A stretch of DNA of 64,000 nt from Candidatus Iainarchaeum sp. (GTDB lineage: Archaea > Iainarchaeota > Iainarchaeia > Iainarchaeales > UBA10219), in NCBI GenBank assembly GCA_018304425.1, contig JAGVWE010000002.1, positions 32,001 to 96,000 on the forward strand. The letters run 5' to 3'. Below, one piece after another: positions 4,810 to 43,281 of the stretch. Each line of letters opens with the position of its first letter. Within the stretch, counting starts at the first letter, position 1. Both the position numbers and the translations under genes were made by a program. Under the pieces are notes generated by a model. That model saw only the letters and a program-made list of their open reading frames with translations. It had not been told where the DNA came from and searched no databases.

Positions 4810-5013
4810 GGCCAGTTGGATTGAGTGAAGCCTACCGCCCCGTCGAGCCACTTCGGGCGAAGACGGGGCACGCCTGCGATGTCAACGGCCCTGGAGGTGG
4901 CCGCCTAATCGGCTGGCGCCTCGGCAGCTGTGCGAGGCCGAAAGGCCGAGCCAGCCCGGTCGAGCCCCGCAGGGGGCGAAGACCGTGCACAGATGTCAAC
5001 TGGCTGGGCAGTT
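4810..5013 (+). ncRNA. Putative structured RNA / tRNA 5' leader (~200 nt) with tandemly duplicated hairpin units
   Basis: Terminal stem 4810-4819/4996-5005. Two copies of gccc-GTCGAGCC-loop-GGCGAAGAC-gcac..GATGTCAAC with a compensatory change. GAAA-loop hairpin. Abuts tRNA-Arg. Confidence 0.5.
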
Positions 5014-5088
5014 GAGCGGGTCGTCTAGCCTGGATAGGACAGATGCCTCCTAAGCATCAGATCGAGGGTTCAAATCCCTTCCCGCTCG
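5014..5088 (+). tRNA. tRNA-Arg(CCT)
   Basis: Acceptor GAGCGGG/CCCGCTC, anticodon arm GATGC-CTCCTAA-GCATC, T arm GAGGG-TTCAAAT-CCCTT. CCA is not encoded. Confidence 0.95.
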
Positions 5089-5090
5089 CT

Positions 5091-5160
5091 ACGCCTTTTT
5101 ACAAAAGGTGTGCGAAAACGTCCCATGCCATGCATGGGACTGGCTGGGCCGGCCCTAGCA
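5091..5160 (-). repeat. Dispersed hairpin repeat, copy A (immediately 3' of tRNA-Arg, inverted)
   Basis: 5094-5145 matches the reverse complement of the 43.2-kb copy at 48/52 nt. Confidence 0.85.
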
Positions 5161-5222
5161 AACCTTTATTAATTTTAGATTCACTTATTATAGTCAATTA
5201 GTAGGGGTATTAGAGGGGAAGG

Positions 5223-8200
5223 GTGGGTAAAATCAGGGCACGGGCGTTACTGGTTTTTGTCACGTTGTTGGCGCTGGCTTGGATGGCTCAGGGAGCCTTG
5301 GCCGAGGAGGCCTCGTTGGCTGAAAGGCTGGGGTTCACGGCAACCGGTTTCGATTTCGCGAAAGTGGACCTGGTGCTCGCGGCCGGAATCCTCATCGTCT
5401 TGTGCGTGGTGTTGTATGCCGTGCTGGCCGTGTTCTTGAAGCCCCAGCAAGGCCAGTCCTATGAGGCGCCCCAGGAGTTGACCGTGGAAGGAATCACGGG
5501 AGGAGAGACAACGCCGCCCAGGGACGAGTCGAATCCCGTCATGAAATTCTATTATTCGTTGGAGGACGGCTGGTATAATTTCTTGGACGGCTTGAACCAG
5601 GTCATCCCCGTCTACAAAATCATCGACCCCATTGACCAGGTCATCCCGTCCTTTGCCTTGTTCTTGTTGCTCTTGTTGTTGCTGCTGGTTGGTGGCCTCT
5701 ACTGGGGCGGCGCCTTCAATGCTCCGGGCCCGGATGGAACCGGGGGCGGAGTGCTGTGGCCGGTCGTGGACTGGATGGGTTCTCTCCTGGGCTGGAAGAA
5801 GGCGGATGCCGCAGGCGTGCAGTTCCTGGTGAGCGACGAGCAGGCCAATCCCGTGGCGGGCGCGCAGGTCGCCGTGGCCTACGGCGAGCAGGCCGAGAGC
5901 TATTCCACCAACGAGTTCGGCGAGTTCTCCATGCCTGTTTACCAGGCTGAAATCTTTTTGGACGTCCAGGCCGAGGGCTTCGAGCGGTTCTCGGAAAACT
6001 ATTCGGTGAACCGGGAGGGCGTGAACCGGGTTTCCTTGAAGCGCGCGCCGCTCTACTTCGCGGAGAACCGCGTGCTGGAACTCGTCGACGAATTCGGGGC
6101 CAGGGTAACGGAGGCCGTGTTCGTGAGCTTTTCCTGCAGTGGCAGCTATAACGCGCCGGCCAGCCAGTCCACGACCACGGGCGAGGTCAGTGTCACGTAC
6201 ACCGGCAACTGCGGCACCCTGATGGCCAGCATCCGGGCGCAGGGCTTTGAAGACCAGACGGTGCTCATGAGCGGCTCGCGGACCGTGGCCGTGTTGAAGA
6301 AGAAGTCGGCCGACCGCTTGAATGGAAAGCTGAACGTCAAGCTGCTCGGCCCCCAAAGCGAGTCCATGACCGGCATGGAAATCCGGCTGTTTGACAACGA
6401 CAACATCTGGAAGAACACCGGGAAATCGGATGCTGCCGGCAGTTACTCGTTCACGGTCACGCCCGGCACCTATTACGTGCTGGTGCAGGACCTTGCAGGC
6501 AAATTTACGTCCACGCAAAGCAATAAGGTGCCGGTGGACGCAGGCGAAGAAGTCCTGGTGGAAGTCCGGATGAGCAAGGCCGGCACCGATGGAAGCGGAG
6601 GAGACGGGGGCGGAACCACGTGCGCCCCGGGCAAGACATTGTGCGCCAATGGGCAGTGTCAAACGAGTTGCGGGCCCGGGGTGTTGCCGGCCTGTCCAGC
6701 CGGGCAAAACCGGTGCGCGGACCGCACGTGCCAGGCGAGTTGCGGGCCTGGACCCATCAACTGCCCCACCGGCACCAACCTCTGCCAAAACGGGACCTGC
6801 AACGCCACCTGCCCCGTAAACCGGCCAAAACCGATGCGCAGACTACTCCTGCCAGGCCGATTGCGGTTCGGGTCCAGGGGATGGCGGGGAGCCCCGGAAA
6901 GTGGAGTTGAAGCTCGTGGACTCGGGTTCGAGGGCGGGAATACAGGGCGTGAACGTGGACTTGTACTTGGAGGGCATCCAGTTGGTTTCGAACGCGCGCA
7001 CGAACTCGGAAGGCGGGGTCGTGTTCGCGAACGCGGACCGCGTGAAACCGTATTCCATCGTGGCAAGCGGGCACCCCAGTTACGTGATGAAGATCGTCAG
7101 CGGCATCCAATCGCAGTTGCTGAACGCCAATCCCATCGTCATCGAGTTGGAGAAGTTGACTCCCACCAATTCGGGGGAAGTCGCGGTCAAGGTGACGGAG
7201 TTGGGGGCGGGCAACGTCAAGCAAGCCGAAGTGTTCTTGTACAACAAGCTCTTGGCGGTGCCCATCGTGAGGGGCTTGACGGCGGACGACGGCAGCGCCT
7301 CGTTTCCGGGGTTGCCGGCGGGGACGTATTCTGCGATGGCGTCCAAGGGGTTGACGCAGGGAAGGAGCGCGGAAGGCACGTTGGCGGCCGGGAGCCGGCT
7401 GGAGTTGGCCGTGCAATTGGTGTTGATGGAGGGCGGCCTCAAGGCCCGGGTCAAGGACGCGCAAGGCAACGGGGTGCAGGCCGCGAAAGTCGAGTACTAT
7501 AACTTGTTGGACAACCGGAAGGTCGGCGAAGCCATCACGGATGTTACCGGCTTGACTCCTGAAGTCAAGCTGAAGATAAACGTCGTGCCCTATCTCGCGG
7601 TTTCAAAGACCGGCTTCTACACCAAGCGCACGGCGGAAACCGAGTTGACGCCGAATGTGACGAAAACCGTTGACGTGACCCTGTCCAGGGAGCAAGCCAT
7701 GGGCCCTTGTTCGCCGGGACAGGCCTTGTGTGCGAACGGCCAGTGCGCGAACAGTTGCGGGCCCGGGTCGAATCCATGTCAGGCCCCAAACAACCTGTGC
7801 TCGAATGGAACGTGTAGTTCGGCTTGCCCCGTGCCCCTCGACTGTCCAGTAGGGCAAAACCGGTGCGCGGACTTTTCGTGCCAGGCCAGCTGCGGGCCCG
7901 GCATCCATCCGGGGTGTCCTACGGGGCAAAGCATTTGCTTGGATGGTTCTTGCCAGGCCAATTGTGGGCCGGGGCCGTTGCCTTCCTGTCCAGTCGGGCA
8001 GGTCCGATGCAATGACCGCACGTGCCAGGCGAGTTGCGGGCCTGGACCCATCAACTGCCCCACCGGCACCAACCTCTGCCAAAACGGGACCTGCAACGCC
8101 ACCTGCCCCGTACTACTCCTGCCAAACCAACTGCGGACCCGGCAACCTCCCAACCTGCCCAACCGGCCAAAACCGATGCGCAGACTACTCCTGCCAGGCG

Positions 8201-11200
8201 AGCTGCGGCGTGGGGCCGTTGCCGCAGCCGGCCGGGGAAATCTCGGTCCGGTTGCAGGAAATCCTGGCAGAGGACTTGAAGTCCCAGGCCAGGGTGTTTG
8301 CGAAGAACACGGCGTACTGGTTGCGGTTCAGCGAAATCATTCCGAACGAGGACAACAAGCAGGTGCAGTCCGTGGTGCGGACTGGCCTGGAGAGCCAGGC
8401 GGACGCGGTTTCTTCGTTGATGGTGGTGCGGGATGCAAAGGCACCGGGCGTGAGCGTGGTGAAGTCGTCTTCGTTTGACCCCGCCAACAATTATGCGGAC
8501 AAGTCTGTGACGGCCGAGGACGCGAAGCAGGCCCGGTTCGGTTTTGGCGATGCCGGCAAGGGCGAGTACGAAGTCATGGTCAAGTCGTTCATTAAGAACA
8601 CTTCGGAGGCCAATGCCCCGGTCGAGATACGGTTTGGGACGAAGGCGGAAGTGAACGGTGTGCCGGTGGAAAAACCGGCGCCGGGCCAGTTGTACACGCG
8701 TTCCTACCGGCTGGGGGAACTCATTTCATGTGACCCCAATGACGTCGGCTGCACGAACTTCGTGTACGCGTTTTACTTGAGTGACCTGACCGGAAAGCAT
8801 TTTTCGGGGAAAATCCCCGTTTTGCCGGGGAAGAGCGTGGAAGTGTGGCAGGGCCTCACCTATTCCTTGGAGTACCGGATATTCAATGCCCACAAGCAGG
8901 GGAAGAGCCTGAGCAACTCCGTGTTGTCGTTCACGAACGCGGACCATGCCTTGGACGTGGTGCCGCCCTCCATTCCCCTGGCTTCCTTCGAGGTGGGCAC
9001 GAGTGTGAGCGGCAGCGTCAACTTCACGCCCAGGTCCGAGGCCGCCGTGACGAGCCTGGCCGTGTCCCTGAATTCAAGCGAGCCCGATTCAAGGGCTACT
9101 CTTTCGTTCAGCGTGCCGGGCAAGAAACAGTTTGCCGCCGTGCTTTACCCCAAGAAGCTGGTGGAAAACGTTCCGGCCAACGTCGTGCTGGAGGTAAGCG
9201 ATGCCGCGACCCGGGAGCGGGCGGCGAATGCCCTGGTCAAGGTTTCAACGGCCGAGGACTTGTCGAATCCCCTGGCGGCGGCCTTGACGGAAGCCGATGG
9301 CGTGGCCGTGTTCTCGGTGCCGGGCCTGCCGACGGGAAGCCGGTTGTTTGCCTCCGTTGAAAAGGAGTTTTACGCGAAAAAAACCGGTCTCGTGTGGGAA
9401 GTGCTGTCCGCGACCACCAGCTTTGTCCCGGATCCCTCCCTTAATTGCCTGAGTATCTCGCCCGCGAAGCTCTCGGTTCACCGCACGTTTGGCGGGGAGT
9501 TCTCGGTGAGTGCGAGGAACTGCGACGAGGAAGCCGAGTTGTTCGTGTATGAGACCGTGGCAGGAACCCCCTTGAAGCTCGTGAACAAGTCGGAGAGCGG
9601 GGCCCGGCTTTCCCTGACCACCGCGCCCAATGCGAGGCTGCCGAAGAATGGTTCCCTGTCCATTGGAGTCATGACCGAGGGCTCGACCTACCAGGGCGAC
9701 TACCTGGTGAACGTGCGCGCGCGGTTCGCCGGGCAGCAGGAGTTCCGGAACCTGGGACGCGTGGAGGTAACGGTGGGCACGAGCCAGGCCAGCGAGAGCT
9801 GTTATGGGTTGAGCAAGGCGTCCTTCGACATCTTCCACCGGCCGGATGACGCGGTCATCACGAACCGGTGCTTCCAGGCGGTGAACGATGCGTTCACGCC
9901 GAGGCTCACCCTATCGAGCCTCAAGGCCCTGTTGCAGCATGCCGGCCTCTCGAGCCTGGGCAAAATCGAGTTTTATTGGTCGGTGTCAAGGGCCAACCCG
10001 GATGGCTCCAGGGAAGTCATCGTGCCTGCCACGTATGCCGCGATTTCGCCGAAGGAAAACCGCCGCGTGGAGTTGGCGGACATCGAAAGCGAGTTGGACA
10101 GCCTGGTCATCGTGGACGTGGACGAAGGCGTGGACGTGGGAGAGGAAGCGGAAGACGAGGGGGGCGGGGAGGAAATGGAGCTCGAGGTCTTCAATACTTC
10201 GGGGGGTCTGGTGAGCACCGACCTGGAGGGCACCATCGTGGTGGCCGAGTACATTGGCGAAGACACGCAGCAGGACCCCTTGATTGAAGTGCAGGCGCTC
10301 AACAACGACTTGCGGGGCCTGGAGCCCGCCTTGTTGACGGTCACGGATTACGTGAAGGTCGCTGACCTCAAGCCCTTCACTGAGATGGGCTTCAAGTACA
10401 CGGTGACGGCGAGGGGCGAGGGCATCGACGTTGCGAAGATTTTCCTTGGAACCATTTCTGCGGACGGTGAGCGCCATGACCTGGGCGGCTTCAACGTGGA
10501 TGCCTTGGCGGGGTTGCAGGGCGTGACTTACACGGTTTCCAACGACCATGCCTGGGTGCAGACCTTGTTTGCGGGCACGCTGACGAACCAGACCACGAAC
10601 CCGGATGACCGGGTCATCGCGCGTTCGGCGGTGGACGTCTTGAAGAAGCGGGACGTGAGCGTGGCTCTTATTTATGACCCGACTTGGGGGCGGAAGTACC
10701 TGCGGCAGGTGTGCGACAACCTGGGGTCGGTTGGCAATGCGTTCGCGCAGGCCGGCTTCAACGTGGACGCCAAGTTGTATGCCATGGGCCGGAAAAGCAA
10801 GTACGTGAAGTGCGACCACGAACTGCTGACCTGGGCGGATGCCTCGAACACCGCGTATGACCGGGTGAGGGATGACGTGCGGGAGGCCTGGGGGGCTGCG
10901 GTGCAGGATTACTTGAAGCGGTTGGCGCCCTCGGATGACCGCCTGATATACGTATTCGTTTTGGCCAACAATGACCCGACCGGCACCGGTTTGGGGGCGA
11001 GGCTGCCGAAAATCACCGGCGTTTCGGCTCCGGAGAGAAAACGGTCGGACAACTGCCTTGCCAACCTGCGGCAGTATGCCGAGCAGGCCCAGCAACGGCA
11101 GCATTGTGCGGCGAACTGCAGCCAGTATAACCAGGATGGGGGAAGCAAGAGCAATGAGGGCAGCGGCTATGACCCCTGCCTGCAGTGCCGGTATGCCAAC

Positions 11201-13003
11201 TTCCAGTCCCAGGACCCGACTTGTACGAACCTCAGCTTGTCGCGCTGGAGGAAGGGAGGCGAGGAGGTGGTGGCGGAGAACGCCGCCAAGGCCGCCGCGG
11301 AAAAGGGGGCCCAGCTTTACTTCTTTTACCCACGCAAACTCGAACAGCGGTCGAGGAGGGCGTATGGGAGCCGGAAGGCGTTGGACGCCGTGGAAGTCAT
11401 GCAGTTGGCGGCTGACTTGTCCAAGGGCAAGGCCACGAGCATCAAGAACCTGGGCAACATCTCGGTCGACTTGGTGGACACGATCCGGGTCATCCAGAAG
11501 TCGTTGAACCCCACGGCCACGGAGACGTTCCACGTGCTGCTCAGGGCAGGGGACACGGACGTGTGCTATGGGCCCAACGACATCGAGGGCTTGACCGGCG
11601 AGAACGCGTTCCCGCGCGCCTTGTTTTCCTGGAATGCCGCGAAAATCCAGGCCGACACGTGCAGCAAGTCCAGCAACAAGGTTGCCTTCTGTGACGCGAG
11701 CCAGTTCAGCTTGTCGCTTATCAAGCGGTTGCTGCTGGTCCAGCAGTTGTACAAGGAAAAGAAGTACGATGACGTGGAAAACCTCTTGCACGACGAAGTG
11801 TACTTGAAGCCGGATGGTTACACGGCGGACCTGCTGTCCGACCTCGATGAGTACTTGCGGTCGCAGGCGTTCTTTGAGACGCCGAGCGGTTACCTGCAGT
11901 GGCTCAAGGAATACTTTTCGAGCCCGGGCAGGCTCGAGTTCGTTTCCGACAACCATTCCCTTACGCCGCTGCCCTCGGCTGGATTGTACCGCATGGACAT
12001 TTCCATTGAGTTCCCGCCGGGAAAACTGGGGCAGTTCATGGAATCGGATGAGCCGGTTGCGTTCATCACCGTGAAACTCAATGAAGTGGTGGGCATGCCG
12101 ACTTCGAACCTCTTCGAGCGGCTGCCCTTGGACGGCGCCATCGTTGAAACGAGCCGGGAAGGCTATGGGGTGAGCTATACGGGCGACCGGGTGCCCATCC
12201 GCTCGGATGAGGGAGTGGAGGCAAGACCCATTCCCGGCAGCGATAACCTGGCATTGGTGAGGGTAGCGCATCGGACGGACTTCGAGTACCTGAACAACGA
12301 GGCGCGGTCGTTCGTCTTCCACGCGAAGGACAACCTGGATGGAACCGTGGACTGGGTGTTCAGCCCGAGCCATGCCGCGCCCGCCTTGTTGAAGGTCGAG
12401 GGCCGGCCCGAGCGCGCGGAAGCATACTACAAGGTGGTGGACGCGCAGGGGGCAAGCGTGGACGTGGGCGCGTTTGGCTCGCTGTGGACGGGAATCGCGA
12501 GCAGCCTCTTCAATTGCGCTGACTTTTCGGGGAAGCGGGTGTTTTACAAGCGCGCGGACGCCCGGAACGCGGGTTGTGCCAAGGAGAAGAGTGGTTACAA
12601 TTACGGGTTCAGCTGGCTGCCAACGGGCGGGCAAGCGGTCTTGGATGCTGGCGCGGTTTACCTGCGCACGATTTTCTACACGCCGGTGGACCAGGTGTAC
12701 AGCGTCAAGAACGTGTGCGCGTCGGGTGAGCCCCTGATTGTTTCGACGGCGCAGACCCTGGACAACTTCGACGAATTCATTGGCTTGAAGCACAACCTGG
12801 AGGCAACCACGTTGAGCGACATGTTCGAGAAGGTGAAGGCGCGGAAGATGTGCTTGAAGGCGAGCGACAACGAGGTAAGGCTTTGGTGGAACGAGGACGA
12901 GTTGTACAAGGAACTGGCAGCGAATTACAACGATCACTTCGATTCCCTGGCCGAGGGCAACGCGGACTTCCAGGCGTGTGGCCCGGAAGCCGCGCAAAAG
13001 TAG
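5223..13003 (+). CDS. Giant cell-surface protein: signal peptide/TM anchor, carboxypeptidase-regulatory-like beta domains, Cys-rich repeats, Ig-like and vWA-like regions. Reading frame broken at ~6818 and ~8112.
   Basis: ORFs 5223.., 6901.. and 7943..13003 join into one protein if +1 shifts are assumed directly after two identical 99-bp repeats. The CPxGQNRCADxSCQASCGPG units continue across both breaks. Confidence 0.8.
6720..6818 (+). repeat. 99-bp exact repeat, copy 1 (Cys-rich array)
   Basis: Identical to 8014-8112. Confidence 0.95.
8014..8112 (+). repeat. 99-bp exact repeat, copy 2 (Cys-rich array)
   Basis: Identical to 6720-6818. In addition, 8161-8199 equals 6819-6857. Confidence 0.95.
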
Positions 13004-22247: not shown

Positions 22248-22325
22248 GTCCAGCTGGAAGCTGGACTGGTGAGCCAGCCCGGCGTGCCCTTCCCGCTTCG
22301 CGCGGGGAGGCGCACGCTGTAAAAC
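22248..22325 (+). repeat. Divergent member of the hairpin-GAGCCAG-hairpin-TGTAAAA family in a 5' leader
   Basis: Hairpin GTCCAGC/GCTGGAC, then GAGCCAGCCCGG (identical to 4948-4959), then a long hairpin with G-U pairs on the + strand, then TGTAAAA. Confidence 0.5.
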
Positions 22326-27147: not shown

Positions 27148-27206
27148 ACCAAAGGAATAAGCCAGGGGATTACTTAAAAAGGTTATGATTAACGAAAACG
27201 AGTAAG

Positions 27207-27321
27207 GGCTTTTTACAACCATCCCCTGTTGGGGGTGACGTCGTCCTGCGAAGCAGGACAACGAAACCCTGCGAAAACGTCCCGTGCCACGCACGGGACT
27301 GGCTCGGCCTTTCGGCCTCGC
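27207..27321 (-). repeat. Dispersed hairpin repeat, copy B, with extra hairpins, upstream of ribBA
   Basis: Core 27270-27321 matches copies A and C with compensatory stem changes. An extra hairpin has a G-U pair only on the minus strand, followed by TGTAAAA. Confidence 0.85.
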
Positions 27322-27373
27322 TTTGGGTTGGCGAGGGCCGGTCTTAAAAGCTTGTCCAGGAATTGTGTAGTTC

Positions 27374-31946: not shown

Positions 31947-32735
31947 CTATTCACAGTACTGCTTCCGCAACTCCTTGCCCTTCTTGAAGGCAAGCGCCAC
32001 GCACTTGTTGATTTCCTCCGGCGAAAACGCGCCCTCGCCTCCCTTCTGGAAAGCCGAGATGAAGTCGTCCTCGGTGGTGGTCACGGAAAACCGCGCGTCC
32101 AACGCCTTTTCCTCGGCCAGGCTGGGGTCCACGACCACGCTGTTCCCCACCTTGACGAATGTGCACATGACCGGCTTGCGCGCCAGCTTGAGCTTGCCCG
32201 CGAACTCTCCCTTCACCGGCTTGTCCTTGTCGTCCAGCTTCGGGATTTTCGTGTCCTGCAAGGCAATCAACGCGGCCAAGGCACAGGCGTCGAAGAGGTT
32301 GCCGTCGAAGTTCAAGACATAGATGTCGATGAACACGACCCAAACCAGCTCGCCCTCGCGGATGCAGAGGCTCTTGAAATCCAGGCAATTGGACTCGCGG
32401 ATGCCGCGGTCCACGACCCTGGAAAGCTCGATGGAGCCCTCCCGGGGCGGCCCGGCCTCGAAAGTCGGGTCAGCCAACGCCAAGAGCTCCGCACCCACGC
32501 TGATGGTGCCCGCGTCCGGCGTGTCCGGGAACGGTTCCCCGGGAATCATCTTGATGCCGGCGACGACATCCGTCTGGCCGAGCTTGATGCGGCAAATCCC
32601 GTCCGCGTTCTCGCTCACGTTCTTGATGACCTGCACAGGCCGGTATTCATCGAACTTCCGGCCATCGCTTCGCTTGCCCTCCCGGAGGGTGGCAAGCACC
32701 TTGTCCGCACTCAAATTCCACAAAATCTGGCTCAT
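31947..32735 (-). CDS. rrp42: Exosome subunit Rrp42
   Basis: R.DGR..DEYR, PFPDTP, ELSRVVDRGIRES and DGNLFDA motifs. Confidence 0.97.
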   Translation of the reverse strand: MSQILWNLSADKVLATLREGKRSDGRKFDEYRPVQVIKNVSENADGICRIKLGQTDVVAGIKMIPGEPFPDTPDAGTISVGAELLALADPTFEAGPPREGSIELSRVVDRGIRESNCLDFKSLCIREGELVWVVFIDIYVLNFDGNLFDACALAALIALQDTKIPKLDDKDKPVKGEFAGKLKLARKPVMCTFVKVGNSVVVDPSLAEEKALDARFSVTTTEDDFISAFQKGGEGAFSPEEINKCVALAFKKGKELRKQYCE

Positions 32736-34945: not shown

Positions 34946-35674
34946 TCACTTTGCCGAAGTCCCCAAATAAGACTTGAGCTTGTCATTGGGTATCCGCGTG
35001 AACACCCGCTTCGAGTCAATGAAAGCGAACTCGACGCGTTTCAGGTCGAGCTTCTCCTTCTCGCCGAGGCTGCCCTCGATGGCCTTCAACAACAACTTCA
35101 TGCCGTCCTCCAAGGAAATGTCTTCCTTGTACTCCTTTTCCAGGATTTCCATGGCCTTGGCCTTGCCCTTCCCGATGGCAATGGCCTGGTACTCGGCCAG
35201 GGCACCGGATGGCTCGGTCTCGAACAACCGCTTGCCCGAATTGTCCACGCCCCCCACGATGAACGAGATGCCAAAGGGCCGCATGCCCCCGTACTGGGTG
35301 AACAACTGCATGATGTTGGAAATGTCTTTCACCAGGGTCTCGAGCTGAATGGATTCCTCGTAGTACATCTGGTTTTCCTGGGCCTTTCCCCGGGCAATGC
35401 CCACCAGCCTCCGCGCGTCCCCCACGAGGCCCGCGGAAACCACGGCAATGTGCTTGTCCACGACGAACATCTTCTCAATGCTGTCCGGGAGGAGCAGCCT
35501 GCTGGGCACCTTCTTCTCGGCCCCGAACAAGACGCCGTCCTTGTACTTCAAGGCCACGCCAATGGTGCCCTGGCTCACGATCTTGGACGCGTACTCCACC
35601 TGGTAGAGCCTACCGTCCGGACTGAACATCGTGGCCACGCGGTCATACTGACTGGACTGTGAAACCGGATACAA
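34946..35674 (-). CDS. psmA: Proteasome alpha subunit
   Basis: YDR..T.FSPDGRLYQVEYA, SAGLVGDAR and RPFG motifs. TTG start inferred. Confidence 0.97.
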   Translation of the reverse strand: MYPVSQSSQYDRVATMFSPDGRLYQVEYASKIVSQGTIGVALKYKDGVLFGAEKKVPSRLLLPDSIEKMFVVDKHIAVVSAGLVGDARRLVGIARGKAQENQMYYEESIQLETLVKDISNIMQLFTQYGGMRPFGISFIVGGVDNSGKRLFETEPSGALAEYQAIAIGKGKAKAMEILEKEYKEDISLEDGMKLLLKAIEGSLGEKEKLDLKRVEFAFIDSKRVFTRIPNDKLKSYLGTSAK

Positions 35675-35798
35675 GCAAAAACACCTCTCAAAAAGGCTCC
35701 CAATTACCCTTAAACTATCTATTATAACTGTGATAGGTTTTAAATGGTTTCCATGGCCTGCGCCAAGAGAATGGCGCAATCAAGGCAATGGACGGCTT

Positions 35799-36209
35799 TT
35801 AACACGCGTTGACGCTGGGCTCGCAGTAGGCGTCCTGGCAGGCAAACAACTGGCACGATGTGTTGAGGCTCGCGCAGTCCCTGTCCGCGGAACAGGACTT
35901 CCGGTAACCGGTTGCCAGGCCAGCGGCCGGCAAGCCAAAGCCCTCCCCCAAGGGGTTGTCCGACAAGATGTAGGGGCTGTTCTCGTTCATGGGCCCCAGG
36001 GGAACCCGTTGCTGCACGTCACCCGATGGAACCGGGCTTGGCCCTGGCCCCTGCACCTGCTGGGGCGCCTGCGGCGGCTGGGCTTGGGGGGACGCCGGCA
36101 CCGGCTTGCCCCCCACAGGGGGCTTGGGGGCATCCTGTTGGAGTTGCACGCAACCTGCCAAGGACGCCAAGACCAGCAACGAAACCACGAGGAAACCAGT
36201 CACGCGCAT
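35799..36209 (-). CDS. Pro/Gln-rich lipoprotein with C-terminal Cys knot
   Basis: LAGC lipobox and CSADRDC......C....C....C.....C tail. Confidence 0.75.
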   Translation of the reverse strand: MRVTGFLVVSLLVLASLAGCVQLQQDAPKPPVGGKPVPASPQAQPPQAPQQVQGPGPSPVPSGDVQQRVPLGPMNENSPYILSDNPLGEGFGLPAAGLATGYRKSCSADRDCASLNTSCQLFACQDAYCEPSVNAC

Positions 36210-36294
36210 GCATAGAATAGGGGCCGAGGAGTTATTTAAGGGTTTGGGAATGGCACGGAAAAGGTTAATTAAGGTGGGCGGCAACAATTCTGGT

Positions 36295-37005
36295 ATGGCC
36301 TACACGCACCTCGACCGCGCCGTCAAGCGCGTGCGACGGGGAAAGAACCCGGCCACGCCGCGGCTGGCGCGAAGAGCCGTGTTTGCCTTGGGCAAGCGGG
36401 GCCGCCAGGCCGAAGCCAAGTGGCACCGGCGCGTGGCCTGGTACGCGGACCAATCCATTCAAAGACTGCAGAGCGCCCGAGCGGACATTATCGCTGGCAG
36501 GTATTTACCGAGACTGTTGTCGACCGTCTTGTCTCCCCGCCACCACCGCAAGCCGCATGCCAAGCAGTTCGTGGCGCGCATGGCCGGCACGGTGGCAGCC
36601 TCAACCGGCAGCGTGGCAGGCGGCTATGCCACGGGCTCGGTCTGGGGTTTGCTGGCGGGAATTGGGGTCGGCTTCGCCTTGGGAGCGACCGGCATCCGGC
36701 GTGCAACCAACCGCAGGCTGCCCCGGGACGCTCGACTGGTGCAGGCAGTCGATGAATTCCTGCTGGAAGGAGGCTTCTGGTGCCATGGCAGGGGAGACAC
36801 GTGGGTCAACGCCAGCAAAAACGGGGAATACTCCGTGGAATCAACGGGCAAACGATTTGTAAGCGAAGTCAAGGCAAGCAACCGACAGCGGGTGGAGGAA
36901 TTGCTGGCCCTGCTCAGAAAAGTCCGAAAAGCCCATTACGACGCGATGCTCGGCGCCGAAGCAAGGCTGGCCGAAAAAAACCCGGAAGTCCCTGACGGCA
37001 CGTAG
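36295..37005 (+). CDS. Arg-rich hypothetical protein with glycine-zipper TM hairpin
   Basis: TATA TTAATTAAG ~27 nt upstream. G-x3-G hydrophobic pair. Confidence 0.65.
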   Translation: MAYTHLDRAVKRVRRGKNPATPRLARRAVFALGKRGRQAEAKWHRRVAWYADQSIQRLQSARADIIAGRYLPRLLSTVLSPRHHRKPHAKQFVARMAGTVAASTGSVAGGYATGSVWGLLAGIGVGFALGATGIRRATNRRLPRDARLVQAVDEFLLEGGFWCHGRGDTWVNASKNGEYSVESTGKRFVSEVKASNRQRVEELLALLRKVRKAHYDAMLGAEARLAEKNPEVPDGT

Positions 37006-37072
37006 TCAGGGCTTGACTTCCTGGTTCTCCAAAACCCAATAATTAAATACAACAAATGCACAAGGCATATTC

Positions 37073-37723
37073 ATGGGAGCCCTCAGACGCGCAATCGAAA
37101 GGGTGGAGAAAAAGAAGCCCATCCAAGGGCGGCCCAAATTCGACAAGGCCACGCGGTTCCGCATCTGGCGGACGGGAAAGTGGCTCCGCAAGCGGAGGAA
37201 ACTCGCCGAGGACTGCCGCATCGCCTTGCAACTCTTGAAGGAAAACGACGGGAACCTGGCCAGGGGCCAGCGCAGGCGGAAGGAAGGCAAACCCACGCTC
37301 AAGAAAAGGGTTCTATCCGAACGCCTCGGGTGGGCCGCCCTCGGCACAGTGGTCGGCGGTTTTGTCGGCGTGCTAACCAGCACGGTAGCAATGGGCAATG
37401 CGGTTATTCCCTATAACTCTGCGCCTTCCTGGGGCATTGCAGGCGGGATGGCGGCCGCGGGCGCGGCGGCCTCCCCATTGTTCAGGCCCCGAGAAACCAA
37501 GGTGATGGTCGACCTGCACAATCTCTTGAGGAGCAAACGCTTGAATGTTACGACGTACGGAGAACGGCTGCCGGCGGACCAGGTAGAAGCTAACAGGCGG
37601 GTAATCAGTGAAGTAAGAAGGAAAATCGAGGCCCTGCAGCAACTGAATGCCCACGAAATCGAGACCCTGGACAACTACCTGAGCACGGCACGCACAACCG
37701 GGCGGATTGGAGTCAAGGCTTGA
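37073..37723 (+). CDS. Arg/Lys-rich hypothetical protein with glycine-zipper TM hairpin
   Basis: TATA AATTAAATA upstream. GTVVGGFVG and GIAGGMAAAG helices. Confidence 0.7.
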   Translation: MGALRRAIERVEKKKPIQGRPKFDKATRFRIWRTGKWLRKRRKLAEDCRIALQLLKENDGNLARGQRRRKEGKPTLKKRVLSERLGWAALGTVVGGFVGVLTSTVAMGNAVIPYNSAPSWGIAGGMAAAGAAASPLFRPRETKVMVDLHNLLRSKRLNVTTYGERLPADQVEANRRVISEVRRKIEALQQLNAHEIETLDNYLSTARTTGRIGVKA

Positions 37724-38057
37724 CCTTTCCGATGCTGCCGCTCACGCCCAAGAGCTTGGGGATGACGGGTTTGCCGTCCACTTGCTTGACGAACAACAAC
37801 CCGGCCTTGACTTCGTCGAGGTGTTCGAGCGCACAGCGCACCACGCCCACGCTTTTCTTCGAGTCAAAGCCCATGAGCCACAGCTTTTGGCGCGCGGTGC
37901 CGACCTCGCCATAGAGGTGGAGGAAGGTCTCCCACACCGCGTGGCCGACGTCGGGCTCGGAAAGCCGTTCCTTGGCCGAGAGGCTGAAGGAAACATAGCG
38001 CTTCTTTCCCCGGTAGGAAGCCGGAATCGGGTTCATGGACTGCTTGGCGTTCTTCAT
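37713..38057 (-). CDS. rnp2: Ribonuclease P protein component 2 (Pop5/Rpp14)
   Basis: R.KKRY..F, YGE.G, GVVRC and VSGSI.K motifs. Confidence 0.92.
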   Translation of the reverse strand: MKNAKQSMNPIPASYRGKKRYVSFSLSAKERLSEPDVGHAVWETFLHLYGEVGTARQKLWLMGFDSKKSVGVVRCALEHLDEVKAGLLFVKQVDGKPVIPKLLGVSGSIGKVKP

Positions 38058-38155
38058 TGCACCAAGCTAGCGCCAATAGGGCTAAAAACCGTGTGATTGC
38101 CAGTGAAGGCATGGAAGCCCGGCGTGTTATGGTTGACAGGGCATTCCCGCAGGGC

Positions 38156-38711
38156 CTAGTGGAGTTTGCCATAGACCGGGTTCCCGAAGCGGCCGTCCTC
38201 GACTTGTCGCTTGAGGAATTGCAAAAAAAGCCCGTGGAAAAATTCGTAGTGGGCTCTTTCGGGCTTGTTTAGGCAGCCCTTTCGCACAAATTCCAAAAAA
38301 TAGGGCGCGATTGCGTCCCGCTTTTCCCCGCTGGCAGCGACGGCTTGTCCGAAGGTGAATTGCCTGGAGTCAATTTTCGCGGCCAACTTCAGCAATACGG
38401 ACTTGGCCTTGGGTGAAAGGGGGTGGAACATGGGATAGAAGAAATCCTTGTCCAACTCCTTTGCAATTTTGAATGTTGTTCTCGTAATTCGACATCCTGA
38501 AAACTAGGCAACCATGATTTTTCGCAATCTGCTCCATTTTTACCAGCAAGGATGTTTTCCCCATTCCACGATTGCCCGTGATGCTCATGTTCATTGGCGA
38601 GCCATTCGTCGTCTGAAGCAGCCAACGCTCGAATTGATCCAGTTCCGCTTCTCTTCCGACAAAGAATTGGGGTCGAGCAGGGATTTGCGGATTAAAGGGA
38701 TTGATGCGCAT
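38156..38711 (-). pseudogene. Archaeal AAA ATPase remnant (internal deletion and frameshift)
   Basis: NPF...F.GREAEL and G.RGMGKTSLL (Walker A) join out of frame, near 38460, to a C-terminal wHTH-like segment. Walker B region absent. Lower GC. Confidence 0.75.
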
Positions 38712-38765
38712 ATATGTTTATAATTTTAGTAATGTTTATATTTTTTACTAACTTCATAAACTTCC

Positions 38766-39326
38766 TTACTTCTCGGCCTCCAGTGCCTTCAATTCCGGGG
38801 ATTCCCCAATCAAGTCAAAGATTTCGCGCTCGAGGGCCTTGACGAGGGGCAGGCAGGCCCGGATTTTGGCGGCCTCATGCGGGTTTCCGGCGCCATAGCG
38901 GGCGGCAAGGTCTTCGAGGCGTTCCTCGACCGAGACCAGTTGGTCGTGCTGGACGCGCTTGTCCGCGTAGAAGACGAGCTTCTCCTCCCAGCCGCGGTCT
39001 GGAAAGGGCTCCAAGATGGAATACAGGCCGTGGCGCGCACAGATGCGGCCGAGGACGGGAAACCCGCACTCGGAGAGCACGCGCTCGACCTGCGCGTACT
39101 CGTCGCCCCCGGCCTGGATGGCGTGCACCTTCATGAGGTCGTGGAGCAACGCGGCACAGCGCACGACCTGGGGCTGGACCTGAATGCCCTTAGCACGCAG
39201 TTTTTCGGCGAGGAACCCCGCCACCCTCGAAACCAACCTGCAGTGGGCGCGCACGTTCGCCGGCAACGCGTACTCGTCCCAGAGCTTCACGCACTCGGCC
39301 TCGGATAAGCGCTTGATGCCGGTCAT
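38766..39326 (-). CDS. HD domain phosphohydrolase
   Basis: H...V, AALLHD, EEKLVFYADKRV and R.EDL..RYG motifs. Confidence 0.9.
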   Translation of the reverse strand: MTGIKRLSEAECVKLWDEYALPANVRAHCRLVSRVAGFLAEKLRAKGIQVQPQVVRCAALLHDLMKVHAIQAGGDEYAQVERVLSECGFPVLGRICARHGLYSILEPFPDRGWEEKLVFYADKRVQHDQLVSVEERLEDLAARYGAGNPHEAAKIRACLPLVKALEREIFDLIGESPELKALEAEK

Positions 39327-39964
39327 GCCTCCAACAACACCTCGATGCGCTCCTTTTCCTTTCCCTTGCTCTCGCGCTTGAGGTAGATGCCCCCAACCTC
39401 GGAGGCGTTGCGGACGTGCGTGCCACAGCATTCCATGGTCTTGAGGCCCTGGCACTCCCACACGAAGCGCGTGGGGTTAGCGGGGTCGCGGTAGACGCGG
39501 ATGGGCCGCGCCGCCTTGACGACCTGGTTTGCCTTGGCCTCGAACTCGGCGAGGTACGGGCGCACGTTTTCCGGCCAAAGGATGTCGAGCCGCGCCTTGT
39601 CCACGGAGACGTTGGAGCCAAAGTATTCGGGGTTGTTGAGCTTTTCTTCCATGATGACGCCGACGATGTGGCCAGCCGAATGCATGCGCATGATGCGGTA
39701 ACGCTTGGCCCAGTCGAGGACGCACTGGACTTCCTGGCCGGGCTGCAAGCCATGGTTGCCTTCGAGCGTGTGGGCAATGTCCGGGCCGTCGACGGCGACG
39801 TCGATGACGGCCTTCCCATTGATGGTGCCGCTGTCGGATTGCTGGCCGCCGGCAAAGCCGAAGAACACGGTGCGGTCCAGCCACACGCGGGGGCCCTCTA
39901 CCTTGACGACTTTCGCCGTGCACTCCTTCAGATAGGCGTCCTGCTCGAACAACTTCTCGGTCAT
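39323..39964 (-). CDS. alaXM: Alanyl-tRNA editing protein AlaX-M
   Basis: DAYL, T.F...GGQ.SD.G, MRMHSAGH and CCGTHV motifs. Confidence 0.92.
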   Translation of the reverse strand: MTEKLFEQDAYLKECTAKVVKVEGPRVWLDRTVFFGFAGGQQSDSGTINGKAVIDVAVDGPDIAHTLEGNHGLQPGQEVQCVLDWAKRYRIMRMHSAGHIVGVIMEEKLNNPEYFGSNVSVDKARLDILWPENVRPYLAEFEAKANQVVKAARPIRVYRDPANPTRFVWECQGLKTMECCGTHVRNASEVGGIYLKRESKGKEKERIEVLLEA

Positions 39965-39985
39965 GGTTTCACTCCCCAAAAAAAC

Positions 39986-40594
39986 TCATTCCCCTAAAAA
40001 GAACGGCTGGAACCGCTCCACCAACCGCTTGCCCTGCGCCCGGGAGAAGCCGAGCAGGACGGCGAAGGCGGCCAGGTCCTTGACGGCGCGGAGTTCCTCG
40101 GGCTTCGAGGCCCCGCTGAAGAACAAGGCGTTGGCCTGGAACTTCTTCAACAGCTTGACGACCATGAAATAGTTTTTGAGGAGAAGGCTCCGCTTCCGCC
40201 CGTTGCAGCGCAGGAAGTCCGCGAAGGAAACCGCGACCGGCACGTTGTTCTCGGCCGAGAGGCGCGCGATGGCCGTGTCAAAGCTGAGCTTGCCGCTGTC
40301 ACAGGGCATGAACAGGAAGTCCACGCCCTTCGTCGAGACCGCGAACTTGTTGGCTTCAACAGAGCCGCCGCGCACCGCCAGGAAGTCGACCTTGCCCCGG
40401 AAGCGTTGCACGACGCGCTGGTCAGGCTGGTCGAGTACGAGGCAGAGCCTGGCCCTTGGATGGGCCTTGCGGAGGGCCTGGAAGCCGGCGTCGTCCTTGC
40501 AGGACGCGGCCAAGAGCACGCGGTCGTTGCCGAGCTCGCCAGCCAGGGAATCGAATTCCTTGCCAGCGGCGAAGACGAGGTCCACGAAGGGCAT
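39986..40594 (-). CDS. rnp3: Ribonuclease P protein component 3 (Rpp30)
   Basis: V.GG....N..A....VD.L, SGA....ELR and LG.S motifs. Synteny with rpl15e. Confidence 0.85.
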   Translation of the reverse strand: MPFVDLVFAAGKEFDSLAGELGNDRVLLAASCKDDAGFQALRKAHPRARLCLVLDQPDQRVVQRFRGKVDFLAVRGGSVEANKFAVSTKGVDFLFMPCDSGKLSFDTAIARLSAENNVPVAVSFADFLRCNGRKRSLLLKNYFMVVKLLKKFQANALFFSGASKPEELRAVKDLAAFAVLLGFSRAQGKRLVERFQPFFLGE

Positions 40595-40644
40595 GACAAG
40601 AGTAGGTAATCAACGAATTAAATAAGGTATGCCGGGTTCGGCCG

Positions 40645-41253
40645 TTAGTTGCCTTGCCGGTGGTGGGCTCTCAGGCTGGGCCGGTTCTTTTCGTAGCCAA
40701 TGCCTTTGCCGTGCAAGCCCCTGCTCCGCTTCTGGGCCGAGGTCAGGCCGCGTTCGGCGCGGTCCTTGTGTTGCTTGGCGCACACCCAGTTAAGTTCCTT
40801 GTCGGCTTTCACGGTGGGCGCAAAGGGGTCCACCAGGATGGCCTCGAAGTAAAAGTGCTGGCCGTCCTCGCCAATGTAGTAAGAGTTCAGGACTTCGCAG
40901 TTGGGGAACCGCTTGCCGGCCCGCTGCTCGGCAATGCCTTGAATGCTTTGCTTGCGCGTCAGCTTCTCGATGCCCATGCGCTTGGGCTTCCTACCCCGCT
41001 TGGGCCTGAAGTGGAGGCCGCCGCCCTTGCGGATGCGCACGCGGGCCGCGAAAACGCCTTGCTTGGCCTTGTAGCCGAGTTCGCGGGCGCGGGGGATGTT
41101 CGTAGGCTTGTCCAGGCGGACAATGGCTTCCACTGGCCTGCGAAACGAAATCAAGCGCTCGCGGTTCAGCTTCTTGTAATCGTAGGACTCATCCAGCTGT
41201 ACGCCCTTGAACTCCTTTTGGAAGGTCTCCTTCACGTGCTGCGCCAACGACAT
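40645..41253 (-). CDS. rpl15e: 50S ribosomal protein L15e (eL15)
   Basis: PT...RAR.LGYKAKQG, EVLNSY..GEDG....FE.ILVDP and RGLTS motifs. Confidence 0.97.
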   Translation of the reverse strand: MSLAQHVKETFQKEFKGVQLDESYDYKKLNRERLISFRRPVEAIVRLDKPTNIPRARELGYKAKQGVFAARVRIRKGGGLHFRPKRGRKPKRMGIEKLTRKQSIQGIAEQRAGKRFPNCEVLNSYYIGEDGQHFYFEAILVDPFAPTVKADKELNWVCAKQHKDRAERGLTSAQKRSRGLHGKGIGYEKNRPSLRAHHRQGN

Positions 41254-41359
41254 AAACAATCCACTAACAAAATCCGGCCAAAAGCAGGACTGGAATACAC
41301 CTAAACTGCTGGAGAAGGCTTTAAAAGGTTTGGGTGGCCGCCTCCGGCGGGCCAGGGGG

Positions 41360-42100
41360 CTAGCCTTTCAGCTTCCCCTCGGCTTCCGCTTCCTCGATGC
41401 CTTCCGCCACGGCTTCGCCGGTGTAGAGGCCGACCAGGCGACCGATGAGGATGGTGATGTAAAGGATGCCGCAGATGACCTCCACGATGGCCAGGGAGCG
41501 GCCGAAGTAGGTCACCGGCAGGACGTCGGCGAAGCCCACCGAGGTCAGGGCCGTGAAGCTGAAGTACACCAGGTCCGCCCAATGGGCCGGCTGGCCGGTG
41601 CCCGGACCCACCAGGATCTCGAAAGAGCCCGGGATGAAGAACTCCAGCAGGGAGAACACCCAGCCCCAGGCGATAGCGATGAGGAGATACACGGCGACCG
41701 CGCCGTAGAGCACCTCGTTCGTCACCTTCTTGACGTGCAGGATGACGTACAGCAGGGACTTGATGATGAAGGCGTAGAAGAGGATCGCGAAGACGTGGTT
41801 CAAGAAGATTATTTCCGGCAGCGGCCAGGCGAAGCGCAGCCAGTTAGACACGAAAGCGGGGACCCCGAGGGCGAGGCCCAACAGGAAGTCTTTCCTGCGG
41901 TGGCTCACCGTGTAGATCCCGGTGATGAGCACCACGGAGAAGACGAGGGCCAGGGCCAGGTAACCGAGCGCGTCGCCTTCCACGAAGGGATAGATCAGGA
42001 TGGAGGCGACGAGGGCAACCAGCAGGAACCGCATGCGCTTGTGCGGGAAGTGGACGATCCCTTCCTTACGGTGGGTGTGGTGGGGCGCGTGCTCGGCCAT
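41360..42100 (-). CDS. Potassium/ion channel family protein (Ion_trans_2)
   Basis: YFSF..LTSVGFAD..P pore helix/filter and 6 TMs. Confidence 0.85.
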   Translation of the reverse strand: MAEHAPHHTHRKEGIVHFPHKRMRFLLVALVASILIYPFVEGDALGYLALALVFSVVLITGIYTVSHRRKDFLLGLALGVPAFVSNWLRFAWPLPEIIFLNHVFAILFYAFIIKSLLYVILHVKKVTNEVLYGAVAVYLLIAIAWGWVFSLLEFFIPGSFEILVGPGTGQPAHWADLVYFSFTALTSVGFADVLPVTYFGRSLAIVEVICGILYITILIGRLVGLYTGEAVAEGIEEAEAEGKLKG

Positions 42101-42151
42101 GGCAATAATGGGGCGGAAGGGTTCTTATACGTTTCAGGGCGCAAGGTAAAT

Positions 42152-43180
42152 ATGCCCAAATGCAACCGGAGGTGTGCGGCAGAGGCCAAGATAACGCTTG
42201 CCTACGGGCCGCACCACTATTGCGCCGAGCATTTCACGGACTTCTTCGAGCACCGTGTCACCAAGACCGTGCGGAAGTTCAAGCTGCTGAAACGCGGGGA
42301 GAAGGTCGGGATCGGGGTGAGCGGGGGCAAGGATTCGCTGGCCCTCGCCTACCTGTTGGGGAAATACTACGCGAAGTCCAACGAGCTGCTGGCGCTGATG
42401 ATTGACGAGGGCATCGAAGGCTACCGGGATGTGGCCCTGCGGGTGGCGAAGAAATACTGCGACGAGTGGAAGATCCCCTACCAGGTCGTGAAACTCAAGG
42501 ACCGCTTCGGCTACTCGACCACCGAAGTCGTGCACAAGATAAACGCCCAGCCAAGCCTGGGCACGAGCTGCGCGTTCTGCGGGAGCTTCCGCCGCACCGT
42601 CATGAACGAGTGGGCGCGCGAGCAGGGCTGCGACAAGTTTGCCACCGGCCACAACCTGGACGACGAAGCGCAAAGCGTGTTGATGAACGTTTTCTCGAAC
42701 AACCTGCCCAAGATGGCGTGGCTCGGGCCCATGACGGGCGCGGAGGGCTTTGACGGCAACGGCTTGTTCGTCAAGCGCGTCAAGCCCCTCTACGAGTGCC
42801 CCGAAAAAGAGATCATCGCCTTCGACGCGTTCAAGGGAATCGAGCACTACTCGGAGGAATGCTGTCCCTTCAGTTGGATGGCGAAGAGAAACCACGTCCG
42901 CGAGATGCTGAACCACTTCGAGGACCAGTTCCCGGGCACCAAGTTCACGGTCGTCAAGTGGTTGCAGGACCTCAAACCCCACTTAGAGGACGTCAAGCCA
43001 GCGGGCCGGCTCCAGGCATGCACGGCGTGCGGGAGCCCCTCGAACAGCCCCCTGTGCCGGCCCTGCAGCATGGTGAAGCTGCTGGACGCCGTCAAGGCCG
43101 CGCCCCGGAAAGCCGTTGCGGCCAAGGGGGGCCCCACCTGCGCCGAAACCAAGGGCCTCCACGACAGGGAATTCGTTTAA
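42152..43180 (+). CDS. tRNA 2-thiolation protein (TtcA/Ncs6/TIGR00269 family)
   Basis: SGGKDS PP-loop, CAFCG..RR, ATGHNLDDEAQS, and N- and C-terminal Zn fingers. Confidence 0.92.
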   Translation: MPKCNRRCAAEAKITLAYGPHHYCAEHFTDFFEHRVTKTVRKFKLLKRGEKVGIGVSGGKDSLALAYLLGKYYAKSNELLALMIDEGIEGYRDVALRVAKKYCDEWKIPYQVVKLKDRFGYSTTEVVHKINAQPSLGTSCAFCGSFRRTVMNEWAREQGCDKFATGHNLDDEAQSVLMNVFSNNLPKMAWLGPMTGAEGFDGNGLFVKRVKPLYECPEKEIIAFDAFKGIEHYSEECCPFSWMAKRNHVREMLNHFEDQFPGTKFTVVKWLQDLKPHLEDVKPAGRLQACTACGSPSNSPLCRPCSMVKLLDAVKAAPRKAVAAKGGPTCAETKGLHDREFV

Positions 43181-43207
43181 AAGCGTTAGCAAATAGATTG
43201 AATAGCG

Positions 43208-43281
43208 TGCGAGCCCGAAAGGGCGAGCCAGTCCCATGCCGCGCATGGGACGTTTTCGCAAACCTTTTGTAAAAAGGTTTT
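43208..43281 (+). repeat. Dispersed hairpin repeat, copy C, forming the 5' leader of tRNA-Val
   Basis: GC-GA-GCCC-GAAA-GGGC-GA-GC, CA, GTCCCATGC-cgc-GCATGGGAC, GTTTTCGCA, AACCTTTT-GT-AAAAAGGTT. TATA TTTAAAAG at 43176. Confidence 0.85.

Follow-up and report, generated by a model that had tools for sequence, protein, structure and literature searches.

A dispersed family of modular palindromic repeats at tRNA genes in DPANN archaea

Introduction

What are the near-identical hairpin elements that recur beside tRNA genes and promoters in a 64,000-nt stretch of an archaeal genome? The stretch, hereafter the window, covers positions 32,001 to 96,000 of contig JAGVWE010000002.1 (GenBank assembly GCA_018304425.1, Candidatus Iainarchaeum sp.), and an original prediction, made from its letters alone, had proposed either a non-coding RNA (ncRNA) or leader motif, or a single-stranded DNA element mobilised by an HUH enzyme encoded elsewhere. 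The host had been taken for a DPANN archaeon, in agreement with the closest named relative of one of its proteins, Candidatus Iainarchaeum andersonii (51% identity). The source genome (1.48 Mb in 7 contigs, 92.6% complete) is designated G000 below, and the window corresponds to its C1:32001-96000.

Bacterial repetitive extragenic palindromic (REP) sequences and bacterial interspersed mosaic elements (BIMEs) are short extragenic palindromes found in tens of copies, organized as modular mosaics at transcript ends and displaying a species-specific sequence. Here, we report that the copies in the window belong to a modular palindromic repeat that is dispersed over the genome and oriented in a fixed way relative to stable-RNA genes, a conclusion that is well supported. 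Our favored interpretation, held tentatively and with slightly less than even confidence, is that they represent, in this genome, a family of small modular palindromes that is non-coding, non-autonomous, REP/BIME-like and spread over the phylum, and that constitutes a tolerated and partly co-opted spacer cassette. No description of the family was found in the literature searched, and it is apparently undescribed.

Linkage to tRNA genes and polarity

The repeat is built from modules in a set order: an optional GNRA-loop hairpin (hp1), the motif GAGCCAG, a 9-bp GC-rich hairpin (hp2), the linker YTTTTCGCM, optional extra hairpin pairs and an A/T-rich clamp hairpin (hpT). Motif scans of G000 recovered 7 hp1 sites and 20 A/T-hairpin cores, and a covariance model built on 15 aligned core copies (R1; hp2, the 9-nt linker and the A/T hairpin) returned 33 matches at E ≤ 0.002, out of 56 at E ≤ 1. 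The family counts many copies with well-defined ends, and forward and reversed copies can be nearly identical. Matches were positioned against 48 tRNA genes, retained from 57 ARAGORN calls after removal of 6 longer than 250 nt and 3 that were implausible (43 with Rfam alone). In line with the prediction of a structured, dispersed family tied to tRNA genes, 25 of the 33 matches were located inside these tRNAs or no more than 135 nt away. The neighborhoods of the tRNAs make up ~1.2% of G000 and would thus hold ~0.4 matches by chance.

The strand of these copies follows a strict rule. Twelve matches stand upstream of a tRNA on the same strand (8 tRNAs), seven downstream on the opposite strand (6 tRNAs) and three inside a tRNA intron on the opposite strand, while none is found upstream on the opposite strand; three downstream matches on the same strand are exceptions, and eight matches are far from any tRNA. 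Hence, 22 of the 25 tRNA-linked copies turn their A/T hairpin towards the tRNA, the repeat being forward in 5′ leaders and reversed in 3′ trailers and introns, with a gap of 0-5 nt to the mature tRNA end. The intron matches belong to tRNA-Gly-UCC, tRNA-Asp and tRNA-Ser-GGA (30 of the 33 matches lie outside introns), and inspection by eye indicated partial copies, consisting of an A/T-type hairpin and a linker-like stretch, at the start of the introns of tRNA-Leu-CAA, Pro-UGG and Gln-UUG. One copy without a nearby tRNA adjoins the 23S processing stem, beginning right behind its 3′ arm. A role of this copy as half of the processing stem was considered and rejected, the true stems being the inverted repeats I1 and I2, with the element pair I10 outside them. 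In G000, one copy of the family ends 1 nt before an ATG (C1:191969). About half of the G000 tRNAs are element-free. Taken together, the copies of G000 occupy overwhelmingly those stretches of stable-RNA transcripts that are removed in maturation: from the TATA box or start site to the tRNA +1, behind the 3′ ends of tRNAs and 23S rRNA, and at the 5′ end of tRNA introns, with the A/T hairpin always next to the mature RNA.

In two of the three polarity exceptions, the 3′ end of the tRNA-Leu located just upstream is repeated behind the copy (21 nt for tRNA-Leu-CAG and 12 nt for tRNA-Leu-UAG; loci L009:1100-1240, equal to G000 C3:228800-228940, and L016). In the related genome G013 (locus L023), three copies of the tRNA-Gln 3′ end surround an element. 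These repeats could be integration scars or partial duplications.

Leader, trailer and intron contexts

In 22 element-free tRNAs, the start of a TATA-like 8-mer falls between -32 and -48. For tRNAs with a forward copy, the nearest TATA-like box is located at -107 to -155, 20-32 nt before the first hairpin, and no TATA-like 8-mer besides hpT itself occurs between the forward element and the tRNA. Since a tRNA needs a promoter and the boxes stand upstream of the element, forward copies must, judging from sequence, be transcribed as part of the pre-tRNA 5′ leader, which agrees with the leader motif initially proposed. RNase P RNA is present in G000 (107 bits) and ordinary 5′ maturation is therefore expected; no bulge-helix-bulge was observed at leader/trailer junctions in the folds.

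Alternatively, the linker and A/T hairpin could themselves form the core promoter, with the T-rich linker at about -26 and transcription starting at the first tRNA nucleotide or, in leaderless genes, at the ATG. The linker does span -30 to -22 from the tRNA +1 in the G000 core copies, and the copy at C1:191969 would fit such a role, as would several tRNA-free copies of the related genus g51 that end 1-30 nt before the ATG of putative genes. However, the TATA boxes clearly used by G000 look different from the linker, the position of the linker relative to +1 is not constant (about -34 in G012 and g51, about -80 where a copy has extra modules), and reversed copies would fire antisense into the tRNAs. 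We thus regard the promoter hypothesis as very unlikely.

All seven trailer matches begin with T5-T6, the run being located 4-11 nt behind the tRNA, and many element-free G000 tRNAs have plain T runs at the same place. Archaeal transcription terminates at oligo-T and, by analogy, the U5 run of the trailer orientation probably serves as a terminator. The idea that the A/T hairpin terminates protein genes in general, in both directions, was also considered and rejected, such hairpins being rare outside the family: scanning the first arms on the + strand of G000 yielded 19 T/A palindromes of the hpT type, nine of them within 150 nt of a tRNA.

Hairpins of other kinds also border tRNA genes. At least 16 G000 tRNAs have some hairpin abutting +1, and other leader families end in this way. 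A second tRNA-flank module family with its own TATA-like box was observed at L009 (G000 C3:227700-229600), L016, L014 and G000 C4:124417-124480; in forward orientation it precedes tRNA-Leu-CAG, Leu-GAG, Ser-CGA and Ser-UGA(intron), its box being at -62 to -73. In reversed orientation it follows tRNA-Ala-UGC, Leu-UAG, Ala-CGC and Gln-UUG, and the box then precedes the ATG of the next open reading frame (ORF) by ~23-27 nt, like the promoter of a leaderless gene.

Covariation and strand constraint

Most differences between the core stems had been described as loop changes or compensatory pairs, and the alignment of the 15 G000 core copies confirms the compensation: pairing is kept in 98.9% of 270 cells, with compensatory changes at 11 of the 18 pairs, a level of covariation reached by 0 of 500 shuffles, while slid controls pair at 35-57%. 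With 52 copies from G000 and 11 other genomes, an alignment that was fitted to the model and hence leans towards its structure, pairing extends to 98.0% of 883 cells, and compensatory changes affect 15 of the 18 pairs.

The non-canonical pairs inform on the strand under constraint. Leader copies (n = 33) contain seven G.U against six A.C among 567 cells, and trailer and intron copies (n = 13) one of each. Because G.U is as rare as A.C, both strands are constrained; a functional RNA read from one strand should tolerate G.U far more than A.C, and the parity therefore argues against a one-strand ncRNA. Moreover, the trailer copy of tRNA-Arg in the window and the leader copy of tRNA-His are identical at 50 of 53 bases in unrelated flanks, which suggests recent copying. 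A strand-specific ncRNA or ribozyme, as initially envisaged, is thus not supported, given the near identity of both orientations and the lack of a G.U excess. Watson-Crick palindromes on both strands fit a DNA-level repeat, or a family working in both senses.

Searches for known RNAs gave a concordant picture. At gathering scores, Rfam matches only three tRNAs in the window; at E ≤ 1, the matches in five element-rich loci are tRNA or tRNA-like and overlie tRNA genes, apart from two weak ones at chance level, and neither the window nor these loci harbor an Rfam ribozyme match for the element. Kink-turns, the sites of L7Ae, combine tandem G.A pairs with an adjacent 3-nt bulge. As a kink-turn candidate hp1 was rejected, its tandem G.A being symmetric and without a bulge.

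The constraint on both strands could also reflect a DNA-level site, either cruciform-extruding palindromes or a duplex motif for a chromatin, boundary or recombination protein that marks the edges of highly transcribed RNA genes, or an att-like arm of tRNA-using integrating elements. The perfect Watson-Crick stems would suit such a site, as would the mirror-image arrangement around tRNAs, the forward copies directly before repeated tRNA 3′ ends (tRNA-Leu-CAG, tRNA-Leu-UAG and, three times, the tRNA-Gln of G013), one element at a synteny breakpoint described below and the three integrase-like genes found in G000, the only genome in which these were counted. Yet, stem sequences vary freely while pairing is kept, which a duplex-binding protein would not require, the intron copies are hard to reconcile with a boundary function and most copies have no flanking tRNA-end repeat. 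We consider such a site unlikely.

Copies in the window

All copies claimed in the window were confirmed at their positions. In pattern searches, hp2 occurs at three sites (5120-5140, 27279-27299 and 43231-43251) against 0.00 expected from 100 shuffles, and hp1 with its linker at three sites (4932-4954 on the + strand, 27299-27321 on the - strand and 43209-43231 on the + strand) against 0.01 expected. Relative to shuffles, the five stretches in question fold with z-scores of -4.2, -2.2, -5.2, -4.7 and -2.7. ARAGORN and Rfam agree on three tRNAs (Arg-CCU, Val-GAC and Ala-GGC).

The forward copy serves as leader to tRNA-Val(GAC) (43282..43354, + strand). Upstream, a TATA-like box (TTTAAAA, 43175..43181, +) overlaps the stop codon of a PP-loop gene, 27 nt before hp1, and is likely the promoter of the leader and tRNA-Val unit; this box, at -107, is the sole TATA-like 8-mer upstream of the element, a match at -16 being hpT itself. 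On the + strand there follow hp1 with its tandem G.A (43209..43228), hp2 with its 3-nt loop (43231..43251), the linker (GTTTTCGCA, 43252..43260), which is the most conserved stretch between genomes, and hpT (43261..43280), which ends 1 nt before the tRNA-Val +1. In two named relatives, the orthologue of the PP-loop gene has neither a tRNA nor an element downstream.

The reversed copy (5092..5155, - strand) starts 2-3 nt after tRNA-Arg(CCT) (5014..5089, +; ARAGORN and Rfam) and comprises hpT (5092-5110), the linker (5111-5119), hp2 (5120-5140), CTGGCT and a GC palindrome (5146-5155). Read in the sense of tRNA-Arg, it has a T5 run at its start (5096-5100). The long structured leader of the same tRNA contains the hp1 and linker module alone (4932..4954, +), followed by other hairpins rather than by hp2. 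This leader (4850-5013) displays a third module type, common to the leaders of tRNA-Pro-CGG, Val-CAC and Cys, with a terminal hairpin near +1. The third tRNA of the window, tRNA-Ala(GGC) at 45891-45963, is devoid of an element copy.

A long copy (27206..27321, - strand) is not next to a tRNA but between two divergent TATA-like boxes. It is composed of hp1 (27302-27321), hp2 (27279-27299), the linker (27270-27278), an extra hairpin pair (27221-27269) and a degenerate hpT (27206-27220). The boxes, at 27342-27350 for ORF 27374 on the + strand and at 27173-27182 for ribBA (probable ATG 27147 on the - strand), are each 23-25 nt from an ATG, a spacing that suggests leaderless mRNAs in the host. A TATA-like box ~25 nt upstream had been proposed for most copies: boxes are present, but their assignment is ambiguous in at least two copies, since the one at 27342-27350, beside the copy ending at 27321, stands 23 nt away from the start codon (ATG) of ORF 27374, which is divergent, and fits the promoter of that ORF better, and the one beside the copy ending at 5160 also fits the + strand gene at 5223.

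The divergent copy at 22248..22325 (+ strand, upstream of ORF 22356) shares the GAGCCAG linker, two hairpins and the TGTAAAA tail with the family, but R1 misses it even at E ≤ 1, and we retain it as a distant relative at module level only. Elsewhere in the window, an MCM helicase gene (51808-55533) interrupted by an intein with a LAGLIDADG domain marks the host as archaeal, and an ORF of 1686 amino acids (7943-13003) has no Pfam match. In another part of G000, a tRNA-Ile gene (C5:152593-152666) has the anticodon TAT.

Distribution in related genomes

An R1 survey of 41 genomes of the same order, G000 included, gave matches in 21. Several loci are common to G000 and a relative: the tRNA-Ser-GCU leader copy (with G010), the tRNA-Gln-CUG trailer copy (with G018) and the intron copies of tRNA-Gly-UCC (with G031) and tRNA-Ser-GGA (with G040). 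All 16 matches of G012 lie within 5 nt of a tRNA, 15 of them upstream on the same strand, and matches near a tRNA number 7 of 8 in G014, 3 of 7 in G019, 2 of 7 in G024 and 3 of 22 in G016, where 19 are far; these five counts consider the tRNAs listed, with 11 tRNAs falling outside, so that "far" may be overcounted. The common core consists of a T-rich linker ending in CGC or CCC followed by a clamp hairpin with T-run and A-run arms, and is found in genomes of 30% to 58% GC.

A broader model (R2; E ≤ 1e-5 with strict filters) was applied to 151 genomes of the phylum, all of one order, and matched 49, with a patchy distribution by family: f21 (12/13), f9 (4/4), f2 (6/7), f30 (9/17), f11 (8/26) and f24 (1/20), with no match in f3 (0/15) or f27 (0/12). 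The number of copies per genome ranges from none detected to more than 50 matches, the three species of genus g51 having 46, 56 and 23. Inspection of 29 g51 loci placed 8 at or inside a tRNA, 4 at 62-257 nt from one and 17 without a tRNA within 1.5 kb; the polarity rule is obeyed by all eight tRNA-linked copies. In G015 (L063, L069, L072, L078, L080) and G029 (L056, L059, L062, L065), which have few or no model matches, other conserved two-hairpin modules stand directly behind tRNA 3′ ends.

This distribution bears on the possibility that the repeat is not selfish, but a host cis-element of stable-RNA maturation evolving in concert. A conserved factor would bind the two hairpins and the short U-rich (in reversed copies, purine-rich) single strand between them, marking the ends of precursors and the 5′ ends of introns for processing or quality control. 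An Sm-like protein is one possibility: a U-rich strand between two stem-loops is reminiscent of an Sm site, and archaeal Sm proteins have been reported to be linked to RNase P RNA. Such a function would account for a core conserved over 30-58% GC and at the four orthologous positions named above, for the strict polarity and the short gap to the mature end, and for the copy abutting the 23S processing stem; the scarcity of T/A palindromes elsewhere in G000 and the other leader families with a hairpin abutting +1 point in the same direction. Against it, the linkers of the two orientations are complementary rather than identical, yet both are kept, the transcribed strand shows no G.U excess, about half of the G000 tRNAs do without the element, whole families such as f3 and f27 have no match, and most copies of g51 and G016 are away from tRNAs. 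Overall, we consider a host cis-element possible, though on balance improbable.

Mobility and candidate partner enzymes

As stated in the original prediction, no transposase is encoded in the window, which contains no Y1, TnpB or integrase match. The proposed mobilisation by an HUH (Y1) transposase or a relative of IS200/IS605 encoded elsewhere fared less well. G000 does possess one Y1_Tnp gene (C1:81-437, 102 bits) and one TnpB gene, and the conservation of hairpin structure rather than sequence is what such an element would display. However, Y1_Tnp is found in 6 of 20 element-positive against 5 of 20 element-negative relatives and TnpB, above cut-off, in 6 of 20 against 6 of 20, so that element presence tracks neither gene and both were rejected as partner enzymes. 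The 99%-complete G016, with its 22 matches, as well as G014 and G019, have neither gene; no TnpB match was found in the high-copy genomes G012, G014, G016 and G019; G025 has four Y1 genes and no element; and no R1 match adjoins the Y1 or TnpB gene of G000. HUH mobilisation is therefore largely refuted, and we leave it scarcely any likelihood. The start of G000 contig C1 carries the Y1 transposase and an integrase-like gene by tRNA-Thr-CGU (C1:81-877 and C1:1451-1524), with no element copy nearby.

Comparison between species offered another view of mobility. Three pairs could be aligned for the 29 g51 loci; two keep the element at the same site and, in the third, the element is located exactly at the edge of the homology block, that is, at a synteny break and not at a clean insertion. 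A search for sequencing runs containing the genome gave 17 of DNA and none of RNA. Four DNA runs examined over a 19.5-kb element-rich stretch provided only short contigs identical to the reference, the joints being tRNA cross-matches of other organisms, and revealed no allele with or without an element. Viral carriage was considered through a pattern scan of IMG/VR, which gave three stretches on two contigs with no tRNA nearby, and was rejected, these being judged unrelated or due to chance. One 43-kb IMG/VR contig (L086:8100-8200 and L087:280-360) carries two T-rich motifs ending in CGC, each followed by a T/A clamp hairpin, and these repeats are much like the element core.

Comparison with known systems

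The family shares features with each of the nearest known systems but fails a defining feature of each. Like REP/BIMEs, and as the original prediction had noticed, it comprises many short extragenic palindromes whose structure is kept by compensatory changes, with modules joined by set linkers. Unlike REP/BIMEs with a REP-associated tyrosine transposase (RAYT), it is archaeal and does not co-occur with a RAYT/Y1 gene; it also differs by its fixed polarity against tRNA ends, its copies in tRNA introns and a core conserved over a phylum. A GTAG-type 5′ motif belongs to REP sequences and was not seen here. Nor does the family conform to palindrome-associated transposable elements (PATEs) derived from IS200/IS605, which go with a parent TnpA/TnpB element whose ends match the repeat: TnpB is equally frequent in element-positive and element-negative relatives, and the high-copy genomes named above have no TnpB match.

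Miniature inverted-repeat transposable elements (MITEs) and tRNA-targeting mobile DNA such as integrases and casposons resemble the family as small, non-coding, dispersed copies linked to tRNA genes (PMC3293823). Unlike in MITEs, the palindromes are internal hairpins, without terminal inverted repeats spanning the unit, and there is no regular target duplication: the flanks of near-identical copies share nothing, and a tRNA 3′-end repeat stands behind two G000 copies only. Unlike tRNA-targeting mobile DNA, the copies abut both tRNA ends and no partner enzyme was found.

In Thermoproteales, near-identical introns in different tRNA genes have been described as "intron transposition" (Fujishima et al. 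2010, as described in PMC4090602), their spread being inferred there at the DNA level, and the present family likewise brings similar sequences into the introns of tRNA genes that are unrelated but share a genome. It differs in being a palindromic cassette rather than a whole intron with its bulge-helix-bulge, and in being found, within a DPANN phylum, also in tRNA leaders and trailers, beside an rRNA and in spacers away from tRNAs. The split tRNA genes of Nanoarchaeum equitans have complementary leader/trailer pairs according to the same source, a likeness to the trailer and leader forms of the element, which are exact complements, and to forward copies that sometimes precede tRNA 3′ fragments. 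In contrast to split tRNAs, the flanked tRNAs are complete according to ARAGORN and Rfam, and the tRNA set is nearly full without trans-splicing. Finally, reversed copies resemble archaeal oligo-T terminators in putting T5-T6 a few bases behind the tRNA, but a terminator needs no 50-120-nt covarying hairpin array, and the same T runs occur inside introns.

Discussion

The spacer-cassette interpretation would operate as follows. Copy-and-paste or gene conversion would make and homogenize the copies as DNA, through an enzyme that is neither HUH nor TnpB, and the copies would persist where RNase P, tRNase Z and the splicing endonuclease remove them from the transcript. Within the precursor, the hairpins may fold alone and stack on the acceptor stem or the processing helix, so that a long spacer could not mispair with the tRNA body, and in the trailer orientation the U5 run behind the tRNA would act as terminator. 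Through this spread, removal by processing, folding and termination, the element would be a tolerated and partly co-opted spacer cassette rather than a free-standing RNA gene.

Several observations weigh against it. The linker and A/T-hairpin core are kept between genomes of 30% and 58% GC, even in orthologous introns (tRNA-Gly-UCC in G000 and G031, tRNA-Ser-GGA in G000 and G040), and this conservation resembles the effect of purifying selection for a host function more than the persistence of a tolerated passenger. The intron copies, in the same orientation as the trailers, put T5-T6 inside pre-tRNAs, which conflicts with the U5-terminator idea. No candidate for a mobilising enzyme emerged among those considered (Y1_Tnp and TnpB profiled over relatives, integrases counted in G000 only), and neither a clean empty site nor a target-site duplication was found, the sole g51 presence/absence case being the synteny break.

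A bolder scenario would address the polarity directly: one palindromic cassette may colonize leader, trailer and intron with a single polarity by insertion coupled to RNA-gene boundaries or RNA processing. Excised spacers could, for example, be ligated or reverse-spliced and then copied back into DNA, or a recombinase could read helix ends. We rate this scenario as unlikely. If true, it would provide a living example of archaeal tRNA introns and split-tRNA flanks arising from mobile leader/trailer elements.

The tRNA genes of a whole DPANN phylum sit in common structured cassettes, which affects the annotation of tRNA ends, introns and promoters in metagenome-assembled genomes, and the covariance models R1 and R2 can be used to screen other archaea. 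The family represents an archaeal counterpart to bacterial REP/BIMEs without an HUH partner, which implies that it spreads differently or is kept for a different reason. It thus offers a testable system for the spread of similar sequences among archaeal tRNA introns and for a possible joint origin of leader, trailer and intron sequences.

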